Source: a virus. Taken from it: a stretch of 5,301 nt of DNA. Of this stretch, positions 1-5,301 are shown one piece after another. Within the stretch, counting starts at the first letter, position 1. Every line of letters starts with the position of its first letter. The notes beneath the pieces are model-generated. The model did not search any database, was not told where the DNA came from, and was given only the letters and a program-made list of their open reading frames with translations. The position numbers were made by a program, and so were the translations under genes. The stretch is taken from the IMG/VR virus record IMGVR_UViG_3300017782_003020. The stretch is one strand, 5' to 3'.

Positions 1-123
1 CGCTTTAGCGTCTCTTTTAGCTTGTATGCTTCCTTCAACTTTACTCATTGCTTCTGTTGCTATTTCCCATCGATCTGTCCTAATATTATAAGCACTTTTT
101 ACCCCTTCTTTACGTTCCGTAAA
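1..123. repeat. Terminal direct repeat, copy 1. It is identical to 5179..5301 and is the overlap of a circular assembly, not a biological repeat.
   Basis: Base-by-base reading shows that 1..123 (cgctttagcgtctcttttagcttgtatgc...tacgttccgtaaa) recurs exactly from 5179 to the window end. The period is 5178 nt. Confidence 0.95.
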
Positions 124-255
124 TATCTCGGGCGCCCCATCACTTATAGGCTCTTTATTACTTACAATTCTTTCTATTTTCCATTCAATAGGTTCTCCTT
201 CCACACATTCGACACTTGTTAATGTGCTCTTATTCATTTTTCTATATTTATACAT
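1..255 (-). CDS. 5' portion of a junction-spanning ORF encoding a hypothetical small charged protein. It is a possible scaffolding or other virion-associated protein. The start is ATG at 255 (115 aa) or 237 (109 aa), and the ORF continues over the circle junction.
   Basis: Manual minus-strand translation from 237 gives MNKSTLTSVECVEGEPIEWKIERIVSNKEPISDGAPEIFTERKEGVKSAYNIRTDRWEIATEAMSKVEGSIQAKRDAKA with no stop down to base 1. An in-frame upstream ATG lies at 255..253, preceded by an in-frame TAG at 264..262. The ORF begins 10-28 nt after the capsid gene stop (266..268), on the same strand as all other genes. Its composition is not low-complexity. Confidence 0.7.
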   Translation of the reverse strand, partial: MYKYRKMNKSTLTSVECVEGEPIEWKIERIVSNKEPISDGAPEIFTERKEGVKSAYNIRTDRWEIATEAMSKVEGSIQAKRDAKA

Positions 256-2812: not shown

Positions 2813-2843
2813 AATTTGTATATTTATGTTAACGTTCTAATAT

Positions 2844-2892
2844 TGTTATATCTATAACATTTTGTACCTCTATTTGAACTATAATTTATAGT
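2844..2892. other. Two AT-rich palindromes in the Rep-to-ORF86 gap: tgttata-tc-tataaca at 2844..2859 and actataa-t-ttatagt at 2878..2892.
   Basis: Read directly from the sequence. The arms are 7+7 nt, with 2-nt and 1-nt centres. They lie 30-80 nt upstream of the ATG at 2812. In DNA this AT-rich they may occur by chance. Confidence 0.3.
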
Positions 2893-2947
2893 ATGATAAA
2901 CCCAATTTTTCACTAATATACATTTTTTTTTTAAATGTCCAAATCTT

Positions 2948-3910
2948 CTACCCTACCCCACCTGTAAGCTTCTTTATTCTTTCTAATTTTTTTATATATC
3001 TTCTTCTATTCTCATATCTTTTAAGTTCCCAATTTTTTTCATCATCACCATACCCTAATCTCTTATTTTTTTGTCTCATCATATTTAATAACTTAAAATA
3101 CTCATCTTCTCCTTTACTTATATCCACTTTTACACCACATACATACCTCTCTTCCTTATCTAATTTTTCTAACCATAAAGCTTCTCTCTGATCCTCATTA
3201 TATATTTTATTTCTATAATATATTGGCAACGCCATTTCTAATCCTGTTTTTGTTTTATAAGTTTCTATTGTCTTATCCTTTTTATATATATTTCTTTTAC
3301 TATCTACTCTTTCTAAATATTGTTTTCCTATTCCTTTACTTACAAATATTTTACTATTATATTCTTTATGTTTTTCATCTGCTTTATTTACATATTTCAC
3401 GATATAATTTATCGTTTTCGCATTCACATAATCCCCTATCCATACTTTCCCATATTTCCAAATCTTCTTTATATCCTTCACATTTTCCGTCCATACGAGC
3501 CCATGAATATGCACTCTCTCTGTCCTTTCTTGTCCCAATTCTGTTACTAACCAATGCCTCAATGTTTTTCCATATTTTTTCCTCCATCTTTCTGTATACC
3601 TTCTTATTGCTAACCTACATATTTCATTATCTCTATCATATCCACTTAATCCTTTTATTTCATTATCTAATTTCTGTAATTCGATTTCTGTGAACGTTAA
3701 AGTTACAAACTTCGAGTTCGCATTAAATCTAATATCTTCCTGCAGTCTTACTTGCCAATTCCTTGCTCTTTGTTTTTTACACTCTATACATTTCCCACAC
3801 CCTACGGGTACCATTAACACCCTTCGATCCATAATAGGGGGGATGTCCCCCCCATTTTTCTTATTCTTTATGTACTTCCTGTTCTGTATTAATCTCGGAT
3901 ACAAACACAT
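2948..3910 (-). CDS. VP4: Replication initiation protein, an HUH rolling-circle endonuclease (Microviridae VP4 / gene A-like), 320 aa.
   Basis: Motif 1 is FVTLTF (aa 68-73). The HUH motif is VHIHGLVW, with HIH at 3503..3511, verified as CAT ATT CAT on the minus strand. The two-tyrosine motif is YIVKYVNK (aa 169-176, 3383..3406). The N-terminus reads MCLYP...VGCGKCIECKKQRARNW, the Cys-rich start I recall in non-phiX microvirus Rep proteins. The ATG overlaps the VP2 stop (TAATG, sharing base 3910). An AGGA lies 5 nt upstream of the ATG. Confidence 0.93.
   Translation of the reverse strand: MCLYPRLIQNRKYIKNKKNGGDIPPIMDRRVLMVPVGCGKCIECKKQRARNWQVRLQEDIRFNANSKFVTLTFTEIELQKLDNEIKGLSGYDRDNEICRLAIRRYTERWRKKYGKTLRHWLVTELGQERTERVHIHGLVWTENVKDIKKIWKYGKVWIGDYVNAKTINYIVKYVNKADEKHKEYNSKIFVSKGIGKQYLERVDSKRNIYKKDKTIETYKTKTGLEMALPIYYRNKIYNEDQREALWLEKLDKEERYVCGVKVDISKGEDEYFKLLNMMRQKNKRLGYGDDEKNWELKRYENRRRYIKKLERIKKLTGGVG
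3837..3853 (-). other. Strong G/C stem-loop inside Rep codons 20-25. On the coding strand it reads GGGGGGG-ACAT-CCCCCC. It is a candidate replication or regulatory structure.
   Basis: The plus strand reads gggggg(3837-3842) atgt(3843-3846) ccccccc(3847-3853), giving a 6-bp all-G:C stem with a 4-nt loop. It encodes GGDIPP. It lies within the 13-mer aataggggggatg (3833..3845), which is repeated at 5049..5061. Confidence 0.6.
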
Positions 3911-4947
3911 TATTGTCCTACATGCATTACCTTATTTGGCATTGCTTTACTTGCTAATCCAAATATTCCATTTAATATATTTCCAATTAGGTTAAATACT
4001 TGTCCTCTTTTTTGTGCACCTACTCTTAGATTATTCATTTCTACTTCTAACTTTTTCAACATTTCTTGTACTTTTAAATTCTTTTCTGCCGTTGTTGCAT
4101 TTCTACTCTCATTTACTTCTTTCACTGCATTTAATGAAATTCTACTCGCCATTTCATCCATTTCTTTTCCAAATTTCTCTTGTATAACACCTTCAGTTTG
4201 TCCTTTTAGTTTTATTAATCCTGTTTCTTTTCTTGTTTTAGCTCTTAAATCTACTTTTAGACCTACTTCCTCAATCATTAATTTTACTTGATCTTGAAAT
4301 GTTTCTTCTGTTATATCATTATTCAATCGTAATTCTCTTATTTTTTCTCCTGCTAGTCTTAAATCTGTTGATATTATTTCTTGTGCGTTTTCTCCTTCAA
4401 TCTTTCTTAGTATTCCAGTATATTCATCTAATAATGTTTTTGCTTTTGTTCCTTCAATACCTGTTTTTATTTCCTCTAATCTCAAAATATTCATATCTAT
4501 TCTACTTTCTGCTTCTTTAGTATCTACTCCACCAGCTTTTTGCGCATGTGTATTATCTAAATTCGCTTTTGCTTTTAATGCCTCTATTTGAGCCCCCATC
4601 ATTAAGTTACTCATATCCATTACTTTTCCCTGTTGACTACTTCCCATGCTTGCACTTCCACCTGTCTGGCTTCCTGTTGTTCCACCTGCTCCTGCACCTT
4701 TATACATTAACGCTGGATTCAATCCTGCATTTTTCATGTGTTCTACTTGTGCCCCATAATTTGTCTTGTTCCACATATCCATTTGTAAATCATGTCCTTG
4801 TCTATTCAATCCTAATTGATTGCTAAATTGCTGATGCATCAAATTCCTTTGATTTCTATAATTTCTTCTCTCTGCTTGATGTCCACCAATCATTCCTAAT
4901 AATTGACTTCCAAATCCTGCTCCAACTCCGTTCATTCCATTTCCCAT
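3910..4947 (-). CDS. VP2: Minor capsid / DNA pilot protein (Microviridae VP2, H-like), 345 aa.
   Basis: The N-terminus is Gly-rich and hydrophobic (GVGAGFGSQLLGMIGG). The block MKNAGLNPALMY resembles the AGLNP.L.Y motif I recall from VP2 proteins of non-phiX microviruses. A Gly/Ser/Thr linker follows, then a long heptad-like charged region (about aa 120-320), consistent with a coiled-coil pilot protein. The position immediately upstream of Rep also fits. Confidence 0.85.
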   Translation of the reverse strand: MGNGMNGVGAGFGSQLLGMIGGHQAERRNYRNQRNLMHQQFSNQLGLNRQGHDLQMDMWNKTNYGAQVEHMKNAGLNPALMYKGAGAGGTTGSQTGGSASMGSSQQGKVMDMSNLMMGAQIEALKAKANLDNTHAQKAGGVDTKEAESRIDMNILRLEEIKTGIEGTKAKTLLDEYTGILRKIEGENAQEIISTDLRLAGEKIRELRLNNDITEETFQDQVKLMIEEVGLKVDLRAKTRKETGLIKLKGQTEGVIQEKFGKEMDEMASRISLNAVKEVNESRNATTAEKNLKVQEMLKKLEVEMNNLRVGAQKRGQVFNLIGNILNGIFGLASKAMPNKVMHVGQ

Positions 4948-4985
4948 AATTTCTATTTTTTAATTTTTAATTTTATTTTATTTCG

Positions 4986-5000
4986 CGCTTTTTCAAAGCG
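4986..5000. other. Small stem-loop cgcttt-ttc-aaagcg upstream of the VP2 start. Function unknown.
   Basis: It has a 6-bp inverted repeat (4986-4991 / 4995-5000) and a 3-nt loop. It is embedded in an extremely A/T-rich leader about 40 nt upstream of the VP2 ATG. It overlaps a TTGAAA / TTTG element on the coding strand. Confidence 0.35.
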
Positions 5001-5051
5001 ATCTTAACCCCTTGATATATAAGAACAGATGCGTACTACACCTATCTAAAT

Positions 5052-5081
5052 AGGGGGGATGCTCTATTTAAACACCCCCCT
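5052..5081 (-). other. G6/C6 stem-loop in the non-coding gap, directly after the stop of the junction-spanning ORF. It is a candidate terminator and/or replication origin element.
   Basis: Plus-strand a5052-gggggg(5053-5058) pairs with cccccc(5075-5080)-t5081, giving 7 bp and a 16-nt loop. On the coding strand it reads TAA-gata-A-GGGGGG-tgtttaaatagagcat-CCCCCC-T-atttag. It carries the same 13-mer as the Rep-internal hairpin. Confidence 0.55.
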
Positions 5082-5085
5082 TATC

Positions 5086-5301
5086 TTAGTTTCCCGTGCC
5101 TTCTGTTGACTTAGCTCCGCTATCTTTTTTCTCCACTTTTAACTCTATTACCTTTGTATCATCTTTTTTCTGTAATTTCGCTTTAGCGTCTCTTTTAGCT
5201 TGTATGCTTCCTTCAACTTTACTCATTGCTTCTGTTGCTATTTCCCATCGATCTGTCCTAATATTATAAGCACTTTTTACCCCTTCTTTACGTTCCGTAA
5301 A
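5086..5301 (-). CDS. 3' portion of the same junction-spanning ORF. Bases 5179..5301 duplicate codons already seen in 1..123, and the stop codon TAA is at 5088..5086.
   Basis: Continuing the frame across 1->5178 gives KLQKKDDTKVIELKVEKKDSGAKSTEGTGN followed by a stop. The stretch 5086..5301 is 216 nt and open in frame. The total on the circle is 330 nt from the ATG at 237, which is 109 aa plus the stop. Confidence 0.7.
   Translation of the reverse strand, partial: FTERKEGVKSAYNIRTDRWEIATEAMSKVEGSIQAKRDAKAKLQKKDDTKVIELKVEKKDSGAKSTEGTGN
5179..5301. repeat. Terminal direct repeat, copy 2 (identical to 1..123).
   Basis: Same comparison as copy 1. The repeat runs to the last base of the window, as expected for a circular genome read past its start. 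Confidence 0.95.

Follow-up and report, generated by a model that had tools for sequence, protein, structure and literature searches.

Why does an AT-rich virus genome carry a hairpin of G and C runs inside the 5' end of its replication initiator gene, and a second hairpin sharing part of the same sequence in a non-coding gap? The DNA analysed here (the window, 5,301 nt; IMG/VR record IMGVR_UViG_3300017782_003020) holds a circular microvirus genome unit of 5178 nt, window positions 1-123 being the same as 5179-5301. All genes lie on the minus strand of the window, referred to below as the coding or sense strand. They include the VP1 major capsid gene (266-2323), a Rep/VP4 gene (2948-3910) encoding a 320-residue HUH rolling-circle initiator with the motifs HIHGL and YIVKYVNK, the latter close to YVAKYVNK of phiX174 A, and a VP2-like pilot-protein gene (3910-4947), whose counterparts in relatives are annotated as DNA pilot protein. 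The VP2 stop codon TAA overlaps the ATG of Rep (TAATG). An ORF of 115 residues starts at window position 255 and crosses the circular junction, with its 3' part at 5086-5301 (minus strand); relatives carry homologous ORFs of 106-138 residues. Judged from CRISPR spacers, this small ssDNA phage belongs to a lineage linked to Bacteroidales, and its host group is Bacteroidota. The related uncultured microviruses form a sizeable lineage, from marine, gut and other samples. A search of a collection of genome contigs with Rep peptide patterns, for prophages and hosts, gave no match.

The Rep-embedded hairpin (3833-3856, minus strand), delineated by folding, rare codons, synonymous resampling and covariation, covers Rep codons 19-26, which read AAT GGG GGG GAC ATC CCC CCT ATT on the coding strand. 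It begins 54 nt downstream of the VP2 stop, within the overlapping Rep ORF, and is made up of a 5' arm AATGGGGGGG (3856-3847), the loop ACAT (3846-3843) and a 3' arm CCCCCCTATT (3842-3833). The original prediction described a 6-bp stem of pure G:C pairs; the G6/C6 core is indeed present, but the length was underestimated, since the RNA folds as AAUGGGGGGG/ACAU/CCCCCCUAUU into a stem of 10 pairs, one of them G.U (-18 kcal/mol). The DNA form of this hairpin has a folding energy of -8 kcal/mol. The intergenic hairpin (5048-5086, minus strand) has a coding-strand G6 run at 5080-5075, a C6 run at 5058-5053 and a nominal loop of 16 nt, but as sense RNA its G.U pairs extend the stem to 11 pairs and shorten the loop to 5 nt, within an outer helix of A/U pairs (-21.3 kcal/mol). 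It begins 5 nt past the stop codon of the 115-residue ORF and has the 3' tail TATTTAGA.

The two hairpins are joined by a 13-mer, AATAGGGGGGATG, found on the plus strand at 3833-3845 and 5049-5061; as predicted, the match is exact, and there is no further match in the window even at two mismatches. On the coding strand the first copy reads CATCCCCCCTATT, which is three loop bases plus the complete 3' arm, and the second has the same make-up within the intergenic hairpin. Each copy is thus an arm of a G6/C6 hairpin, as had been claimed, and ten of these 13 bases, which on the coding strand read CCCCCCTATT, form the 3' arm of one and the same extended stem. With a genome GC content of 33% and only 9.8% C on the coding strand, the two hairpin arms hold the only C-runs of at least five on the coding strand of the 5178-nt unit. 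For matches to the 13-mer the expected number is 0.24, and at least two were seen in 6 of 200 shuffles. The z-scores of the hairpins against dinucleotide shuffles are modest (-2.2 and -2.9), because such shuffles retain the GG and CC dinucleotides. Rfam covariance models, run on both strands of the window, matched nothing at E<=1. That the pair of hairpins is not a chance product nevertheless holds, and the decisive evidence comes from comparison with relatives.

Elsewhere in these genomes GGG makes up 9.2% of Gly codons and CCC 2.2% of Pro codons, yet the Rep stem uses both. When Rep codons 13-34 were folded and compared with 300 synonymous resamples, 66 of the 81 distinct relatives were found to keep the hairpin (p<=0.003), with p=0.000 in the window itself. 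Relatives with Rep identities as low as 47% still have it, once with another peptide (GGFIDYEAM), and its register moves by no more than 3 nt; it is absent from some relatives (the L029-31, L063-L074 clade, L015 and L027/28). Across the stem 81.5% of cells are paired, compared with 48-64% in slid registers, and double-sided changes number 38 against 6.4 in shuffles (reached in none of 500), although these counts come from phylogenetically related genomes and the independent events are far fewer than the cells. At pair 15-34 the combinations are CG (29), UA (24) and UG (15), that is, AAC..GTT versus AAT..ATT; at pair 18-31 they are GC (47) and CG (8), the latter as GGC..GCC (GGCGGG/CCCGCC) at the price of a Pro-to-Ala change. 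Other variants likewise alter the protein, with AGGGGG/CCCCCT replacing Gly by Arg and GGGGGA/TCCCCC replacing Pro by Gln; AGGGA/TCCCT also occurs. Codon 26 is ATT in all 30 cases in which it encodes Ile (23% expected) and GTT in 20 of the 29 in which it encodes Val (9% expected).

The peptide NKKNGG..IP is well conserved in Rep, but constraint on the peptide alone is ruled out by the rare codons and by the amino-acid changes that track the pairing. Relatives keep the stem while the peptide changes, and do not retain the peptide with the stem destroyed, so the distinction between structure and peptide that the prediction had called for falls on the side of structure. From these comparisons we conclude that the Rep hairpin is under strong selection, at the nucleotide level, as a structure; it is a clear example of a nucleic-acid stem being maintained at the cost of the protein sequence. 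An additional outer helix from codons 15-16 and 26-27 (AGTAAC/GTTACT, GCCAAT/ATTGGC) pairs in 60% of cells family-wide and is clade-specific at best. Concerted evolution beyond the stem was also rejected, by inspection and hence weakly, as the sequence immediately 5' of the C-run is shared over roughly equal lengths within and between genomes.

The strand on which the structure acts can be read from its wobble pairs. In the Rep stem, 42 cells are G.U and 15 are A.C, the latter being register artefacts. When sense and antisense RNA were compared, the sense form was the more stable one for 27 of 32 Rep hairpins (by 2.1 kcal/mol on average) and for 60 of 63 intergenic hairpins (3.0 kcal/mol). The G.U pairs indicate that the structure belongs to the sense strand. 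In a scan for consensus terminators the Rep hairpin was flagged on the antisense (plus) strand only, because of the Lys/Asn A-run upstream of it. A terminator for antisense transcripts was rejected at this site: the G.U pairs would turn into A.C mismatches on the plus strand, and the upstream A's are no commoner than codon usage predicts.

Hairpins of the same kind recur outside Rep. Among relatives there are one to three copies per genome, and their position varies, some lying behind VP1, some behind the small ORF and some within Rep. Strong hairpins thereby punctuate the genomes behind VP1, the small ORF or VP2, and exactly two of them are present in about 41 of 45 fully scorable genomes. 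In one sister clade a G/C hairpin lies directly 3' of the VP1 stop codon. The intergenic copies lie outside ORFs in 66 of 67 cases, at a median of 7 nt from the preceding stop codon (no more than 15 nt in 48 of 59), and where they have tetraloops these are GNRA in 24 of 29, a loop type that, like the G.U pairs, is present on the sense strand only. At least five T in 8 nt are found in the sense tails of 24 of 66 intergenic copies (background 1.4%) and at least four T in 40 of 66 (background 7.4%); many tails carry just 3-4 T in 8 nt. Loops range from 3 nt (AAA) to 17 nt and, like the 3' flanks, vary freely. The two copies share 13-15-mers in the subclade of the window, and outside this closest subclade the two copies of a genome have only the G and C runs in common. 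Two relatives whose Rep is 84-85% identical to that of the window (L059 and L062) have kept the Rep hairpin and have no intergenic G/C hairpin; the equivalent intergenic place is taken by a long GC stem of unrelated sequence with a T-run behind it (TAATTTTTT). At the intergenic site, these two genomes suggest, structure matters and sequence does not, and the intergenic hairpin looks like an intrinsic terminator.

The selected structure, its sense-strand specificity, the positions of the copies and the terminator hallmarks of the intergenic ones are established by these comparisons. Like Rho-independent terminators, the hairpins are GC-rich stem-loops of the sense transcript at gene or operon ends, and they are most likely leaky transcription stops rather than a replication origin. 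We put at roughly one half the probability that both are 3'-end structures of sense RNA, the Rep copy attenuating Rep downstream of VP2. The original prediction had mentioned, as an alternative, that attenuation or termination within the gene might keep Rep expression below that of VP2; this is now the best-supported mechanism.

We propose that both hairpins would make or protect mRNA 3' ends, as leaky Rho-independent terminators, as barriers to 3'-exonucleases, or as both. The intergenic hairpin would close the late transcription unit right behind the stop of the 115-residue ORF, as its sister-clade equivalent would right behind VP1. The second hairpin would have to act immediately downstream of VP2, where the overlap of VP2 and Rep (TAATG) leaves no intercistronic space; for this reason it would have been placed in codons 19-26 of Rep (N-G-G-x-I-P-P-I/V), the first part of the gene to tolerate it. 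Full-length Rep would then be encoded only by read-through transcripts, or by an unprotected fraction, and its level would therefore fall below that of the pilot protein VP2. Both the formation of RNA 3' ends at the hairpins and the lowered Rep dosage are what we infer from the comparison. Were termination inside Rep efficient, the downstream late genes would need a promoter of their own; a conserved motif, a putative promoter, lies in the gap between Rep and ORF86.

The sense tail of the Rep hairpin reads UAUUAUGG in the window, its first four bases belonging to the extended stem, and GUAACUGA in another clade; the U-tract is weak, with TATTATGG in the window and GTAACTGA elsewhere. This weak U-tract, the antisense-only flag of the terminator scan and the sparse T in many intergenic tails count against the proposed role in RNA, as does the fact that the same hairpins are energetically allowed in ssDNA.

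This last point leads to the strongest alternative, which we regard as possible but improbable: in packaged ssDNA the hairpins would be signals for the origin of the complementary (minus) strand, and could double as terminators. GC hairpins would stay folded in AT-rich DNA coated with SSB and recruit a host primase or polymerase, and several copies would be tolerated; the observed one to three per genome are compatible with such a role. As ssDNA the hairpins fold at -7 to -10 kcal/mol even with the G.T pair included, so energetics permit folding in DNA, and no other local structure of this 33% GC genome comes near them in GC content. Known minus origins (G4 ori-c, the phiX174 PriA site, M13, ssoA), however, are longer, compound structures, and the present hairpins are short and simple. 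Nor does a minus origin give any reason for starts 5-11 nt past stop codons, T-enriched tails or a preference for GNRA loops. The sense-strand specificity would fit the viral strand if the coding strand is the one packaged, as in known microviruses, but 4-fold sites on the coding strand are 71% A and their composition is the mirror image of that in phiX174, SpV4 and Chp2, so the coding strand need not be the packaged one. Polarised substitutions gave no signal as to the packaged strand (C>T 81 versus G>A 77 per 1000 bases), the sequences being too divergent. Precedent exists in the conserved intergenic hairpins of roodoodoo- and reekeekeeviruses (Olo Ndela et al. 2022, PMC9865509), small microviruses for which minus-strand priming has been proposed, and in the T_F terminator of phiX174, which overlaps ori(-) and the PriA site (preprint 10.64898/2026.07.25.740675). 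It is conceivable, though we think it improbable, that the paired G/C hairpins have a dual use, as initiation signals for the complementary strand in ssDNA and as terminators or attenuators of transcripts. They would then be the sole landmarks of an AT-rich genome to withstand SSB and the long-sought signals of Bacteroidota microviruses, and it would be explained why about two hairpins are kept and moved between gene ends and the Rep coding sequence.

Leaky stops on the sense transcript also account better for the Rep copy than an effect on translation or on the protein (ribosome slowing, an internal start, a frameshift or the GGxIPP peptide), with the intergenic copy as an unrelated terminator. 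Such an effect we consider very unlikely. The conservation of NKKNGG..IP would fit it, but rare codons and pairing-tracked replacements exclude a peptide-only constraint, and the same hairpin architecture recurs at non-coding positions. At 54 nt into the ORF the hairpin presumably cannot occlude initiation. At first sight the A-run with a hairpin behind it looks like a -1 frameshift signal, with A AAA AAC in one clade, but such a signal needs a slippery heptamer and a spacer of 5-9 nt, whereas the clade of the window has G AAA AAT, no slippery heptamer and a spacer of 0 nt, and the arrangement is not conserved. An ATG lies 3' of the hairpin in the window, but an A*-like internal start was rejected because this Met27 is replaced by K, Q, S, T or N in relatives.

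More doubtful still is that Rep nicks or binds the shared 13-mer hairpin, with one copy as the plus-strand origin and the other as a second Rep site for termination or autoregulation. The phiX174 origin lies within gene A, the catalytic motif of Rep is near that of phiX174 A, and HUH enzymes often cut at hairpins; in the subclade of the window, moreover, the two copies have 13-15-mers in common and the distance from the end of the intergenic hairpin to an invariant block is 28-32 nt. A plus-strand origin is, however, a single copy per replicon with a nick-site sequence conserved among relatives that have this Rep, and the hairpins offer neither, the window itself having two similar copies in direct orientation. 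No loop or flank is conserved in a way fit for a nick site, loops running from AAA to 17 nt, and outside the closest subclade the copies share G and C runs only. The intergenic G/C copy is lacking in L059 and L062 and the Rep copy in the relatives named above, and the L034/L039 clade has an ORF between the hairpin and the invariant block. A rolling-circle genome with two cleavable origins in direct orientation would also be split into subgenomic circles. A Rep-internal plus-strand origin at the 13-mer copies, the favoured idea of the prediction, thus finds no support, as copy number and position vary and the loops are not conserved.

A better candidate for the origin appears to be the almost invariant intergenic module apart from the hairpins (4981-5037, minus strand), an origin or promoter candidate which reads GTACGCATCTGTT CTTATATATCAAG (5036-5011), N10 and CGCTTTGAAAAAGCGCGAAA (4981-5000, read from 5000) on the coding strand. 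It contains an invariant block of 27 nt (5011-5037), naturally comparable to the origin of 30 nt that phiX-like phages conserve, and a CRISPR spacer matches it in the relative L047. The 71% A at 4-fold sites of the coding strand raises the possibility that this lineage packages the antisense strand, in which case this block (CTTGATAT.. on the antisense strand) would be its origin. A likeness of the block, on its antisense strand, to the phiX174 origin was rejected as not significant (local alignment score 12, shuffle mean 12.1).

A dif/Xer recombination site, as reported for some gokushovirus prophages at or close to the N-terminus of VP4 (PMC7062461), is dismissed here: such a site resembles the host dif site and spans 28 bp, a fixed spacer of 6 bp separating its two arms of 11 bp, whereas the present arms are G/C runs spaced 3-17 nt apart, and no prophage copy was found in the genome contigs searched.

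To our knowledge, no cis-acting element (origin, minus-strand start, promoter or terminator) has been mapped in microviruses outside the phiX174 group, and we found neither an origin nor a Rep-internal hairpin described for non-phiX microviruses in the literature. An uncultured microvirus lineage gains testable elements here: two structure-selected hairpins, an almost invariant block as the better origin candidate, and a CRISPR link to Bacteroidales. Should the Rep hairpin indeed be an attenuator, a 5-kb genome would set the ratio of pilot protein to Rep despite overlapping genes and without intergenic space. Annotators should be cautious, as the hairpin is probably not the origin.

Among known systems, bacterial operons have intercistronic hairpins that stabilise mRNA, as well as intragenic attenuators; examples are the hairpin of the Rhodobacter puf operon and REP elements. 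They keep the steady-state level of the upstream message above that of the downstream one. The Rep hairpin is likewise a stem-loop downstream of one cistron, with the same relation proposed for VP2 and Rep, but the puf hairpin and REP elements sit between genes, whereas here the genes overlap and the element lies within the downstream ORF. Like the phiX174 plus-strand origin in gene A, it is a cis element within the Rep gene that constrains synonymous sites; that origin, however, is a single-copy, 30-nt, non-hairpin element invariant among relatives, and the Rep hairpin drifts in sequence, varies in copy number and is lost in some clades. The hairpins of roodoodoo- and reekeekeeviruses also show compensatory substitutions, with minus-strand priming among their proposed roles, but are purely intergenic, with no coding-embedded twin described (PMC9865509). 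Closest are the four leaky Rho-independent terminators of phiX174, T_J, T_F, T_G and T_H, which follow genes J, F, G and H (preprint 10.64898/2026.07.25.740675). In both phages all genes are on one strand and hairpins stand directly after structural genes; the phiX174 terminators punctuate transcription and set relative mRNA doses, and the same is proposed here. They differ in that the present stems are homopolymeric G/C runs, that the U-tract of the Rep copy is weak, and that one hairpin lies inside the Rep coding sequence, held there by codon choice and amino-acid covariation.

The window represents a microvirus genome in circularly permuted form. Its first 123 bases are identical to 5179-5301, and this 123-nt terminal redundancy indicates a circular assembly with a unit of 5178 nt. 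Every gene lies on the minus strand, here the coding strand: the VP1 capsid gene (266-2323, Pfam Phage_F), Rep/VP4 (2948-3910, Pfam REP_ORF2-G2P, containing HIHGL and YIVKYVNK), a VP2-like pilot gene (3910-4947) that ends in a TAA overlapping the start codon (ATG) of Rep, a 115-aa ORF and two further small ORFs. The 115-aa ORF spans the circular junction (255..1 joined to 5178..5086, with its stop end at 5086) and for this reason appears as a mere 46-aa fragment in the ORF listing of the window. The coding strand is 44% A and 9.8% C. A GenBank search at the DNA level found no close relative of the window. Relatives were taken from two IMG/VR scans, which gave 92 loci with Rep identities of 59-88% in nearly all, and six added GenBank genomes extended this range down to 47%. 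The IMG/VR contigs are assemblies of uncultured viruses; one of them, L013 (8288 nt), exceeds one genome unit, has hairpins of slightly different sequence at 3072, 7005 and 7915 (two Rep-type and one intergenic), and probably joins two related genomes as a chimera or concatemer.

The original prediction placed the same G-rich 13-mer at 3833-3845, within Rep, and at 5049-5061, in the intergenic region. Both copies were confirmed, with no third site even when two mismatches were allowed. A partial match inside VP1, ATCCTAAATAGGGG (1831-1844, repeat family D7), was judged to be chance because no complementary C-run lies nearby; C-runs of at least 5 occur in the genome only as the two hairpin arms. 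The Rep hairpin (3833-3856, minus strand) occupies codons 19-26, which read AAT GGG GGG GAC ATC CCC CCT ATT, and as RNA it forms a 10-pair stem, AAUGGGGGGG/CCCCCCUAUU, with an ACAU loop (-18 kcal/mol). The intergenic hairpin (5048-5086, minus strand) forms 11 pairs plus an A/U outer helix (-21.3 kcal/mol as RNA), and folded as DNA both elements reach about -8 kcal/mol. Ten of the 13 shared bases are thus accounted for by the 3' arm of the same stem.

Comparison with the relatives, the check by which the original prediction could have been refuted, instead favours a selected structure at the Rep site, on the combined evidence of codon bias, resampling and covariation; the stem is kept through compensatory and amino-acid changes. 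Across the relatives' three large genes GGG makes up 9.2% of Gly codons and CCC 2.2% of Pro codons, and the Rep site uses both. When the fold of codons 13-34 was compared with that of 300 synonymous resamples encoding the same peptide, p was ≤0.003 for 66 of 81 distinct Rep sequences. When 87 sequences were aligned without gaps, 81.5% of cells were paired, against 48-64% when the partner column was slid by 1-3 positions, and there were 38 double-sided changes against 6.4 in shuffles, a value reached by none of 500 shuffles, although counts of cells exaggerate how many independent events there were, because the sequences are related. Codon 26 is ATT for every Ile (expected 23%) and GTT for 20 of 29 Val (expected 9%); Asn19 AAT pairs with Ile26 ATT, and AAC with Val26 GTT (pair 15-34: CG 29, UA 24, UG 15). 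A flipped pair is retained in GGC GGG .. CCY GCC at the price of a Pro-to-Ala change, a Gly-to-Arg change in AGG GGG .. CCC CCT is matched by a synonymous C-to-T change, the GGGGGA/TCCCCC variant has Gln in place of Pro25, and AGGGA/TCCCT has 5 pairs. From clade to clade the stem moves by as much as 3 nt relative to the reading frame. A hairpin also stands at this place in distant GenBank relatives (for example AATGGCGGG/CCCGCCATT and ACGGGGGGC/GCCCCCCGT), in one of them with a wholly different peptide; it has been lost from one clade reading ..IVPEV.. and from a few indel variants.

The intergenic hairpins were collected as 67 distinct G5/C5 hairpins, with annotated Rep sites left out. All but one (66 of 67) lie outside ORFs, the exception being the Rep-internal hairpin of the GenBank relative L098. 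They start a median of 7 nt past a stop codon (≤15 nt in 48 of 59), the preceding gene being VP1 or an ORF of 106-138 aa, and 24 of 29 tetraloops are GNRA. Of 66 stems, 24 have at least 5 T in the 8 nt on their 3' side and 40 have at least 4 T, the background rates being 1.4% and 7.4% respectively. On sequence grounds these features are hallmarks of an intrinsic terminator. Two relatives, L059 (about 1585-1640) and L062 (about 450-505), whose Reps are 84-85% identical to that of the window and which retain the Rep hairpin, carry at the intergenic position, in place of the G/C hairpin, a long GC stem of 15 pairs that is unrelated to it, GGGCAGAGCTTCAGG..CCTGGAGCTTTACCC, with TAATTTTTT after it. 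They are in effect natural swap mutants, and show that recognition specific to the G/C-runs is not needed. A strong hairpin stands after VP1 or after the small ORF, hardly ever after both; the sole clade with both is without the Rep hairpin, and exactly two hairpins are present in about 41 of the 45 genomes that could be scored in full. This compensation is suggestive only, since a single evolutionary event underlies it.

Hairpin-bearing Rep sequences contain 42 G.U cells against 15 A.C cells, the latter all from sequences with a shifted register, and in 27 of 32 Rep and 60 of 63 intergenic hairpins the sense RNA has a better fold than the antisense RNA. The structure therefore acts on the coding strand, as mRNA or coding-sense ssDNA, and the same counts and folds rule out a duplex palindrome or action on the antisense strand.

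The proposal that the Rep hairpin is a replication origin is contradicted by copy number, by the absence of a conserved loop or flank, by the L059/L062 replacement and by the losses noted above. A much better candidate is an almost invariant non-coding module (4981-5037, minus strand) upstream of VP2, found once per genome in L001-L096. Its coding-strand sequence is GGTACGCATnTRTT CTTATATATCAAG, N9-12, CGCTTT-loop-AAAGCG CGAAA; 75 of 92 loci share an identical 13-mer core, about 8 have the variant ..ATGAAC, and one clade has the core flanked by a 7-bp inverted repeat, GCGGTAC..GTACCGC. Read antisense the core is CTTGATAT, the phiX174/pC194 nick core, a likeness not significant on its own. The module is a candidate plus-strand origin and/or promoter. 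In the clade of the window the intergenic hairpin ends 28-32 nt upstream of it; the hairpin is not integral to the module, because an ORF separates the two in the L034/L039 clade. In L023, L036 and L052 the 3' half of the hairpin (GTCCCCCTTTAAT) is present ~30 nt upstream of the module and the G-run arm is missing, which reflects either natural loss of the hairpin or a breakpoint there, due to recombination or assembly.

When the module was used for an exact-pattern scan, one bacterial record matched, a Bacteroidales MAG (L103, JBOFUP010000001.1), at a spacer of a 91-repeat CRISPR array (repeat about GTTTCAATTCCTTATGGTACAATTAAAAG) that is 32/32 identical to the module of L047; two further spacers match other genes of this microvirus lineage. 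The matching spacers (4838-4872, 3419-3456 and 1556-1590, one being the L047 module) point to a Bacteroidales host. No Shine-Dalgarno sequences were seen before the genes of the window on reading of the sequence, which fits this link, as Bacteroidota translation is associated with their absence.

The main rival to a role in transcript 3' ends is that the hairpins are complementary-strand initiation signals in viral ssDNA, possibly also terminators, a combination for which phiX174 T_F is a precedent. Fold energies do not discriminate RNA from ssDNA, and polarised substitution counts were uninformative on the packaged strand. This strand is made more uncertain by the composition of 4-fold degenerate sites on the coding strand (VP1, VP2 and Rep). 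In the window A accounts for 71% of them, T for 11%, G for 16% and C for 2%, and in relatives A accounts for 60-78%, so that either the identity of the packaged strand or a strong bias specific to the host comes into question. The mirror image is seen in phiX174, SpV4 and Chp2, where such sites are T-rich (58%, 65% and 52% T, respectively), whereas those of phiMH2K are likewise A-rich (45% A).

The most economical reading of the sequence comparisons is that both hairpins make or protect the 3' ends of sense transcripts. The intergenic hairpin would close the late transcription unit, and the Rep hairpin, which follows the VP2 stop as closely as is compatible with conservation of the Rep N-terminus, would reduce full-length Rep message; the poor sense-strand U-tract of the Rep copy is a weak point. 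Another conserved motif in non-coding sequence, (C/G)TATAAATTATAG(G/T)(A/T)CAAAT, at about 2840-2890 in the Rep-ORF86 gap (2813-2947, minus strand), gives no more than a hint of a late-gene promoter downstream of the Rep hairpin. This motif is near-palindromic, is common to the otherwise divergent L003, L004, L014, L021, L030, L063, L065 and L070, and may be a late promoter or operator. As 3'-end elements of sense transcripts, the two hairpins would resemble the leaky terminators of phiX174, which grade the transcripts of that phage.
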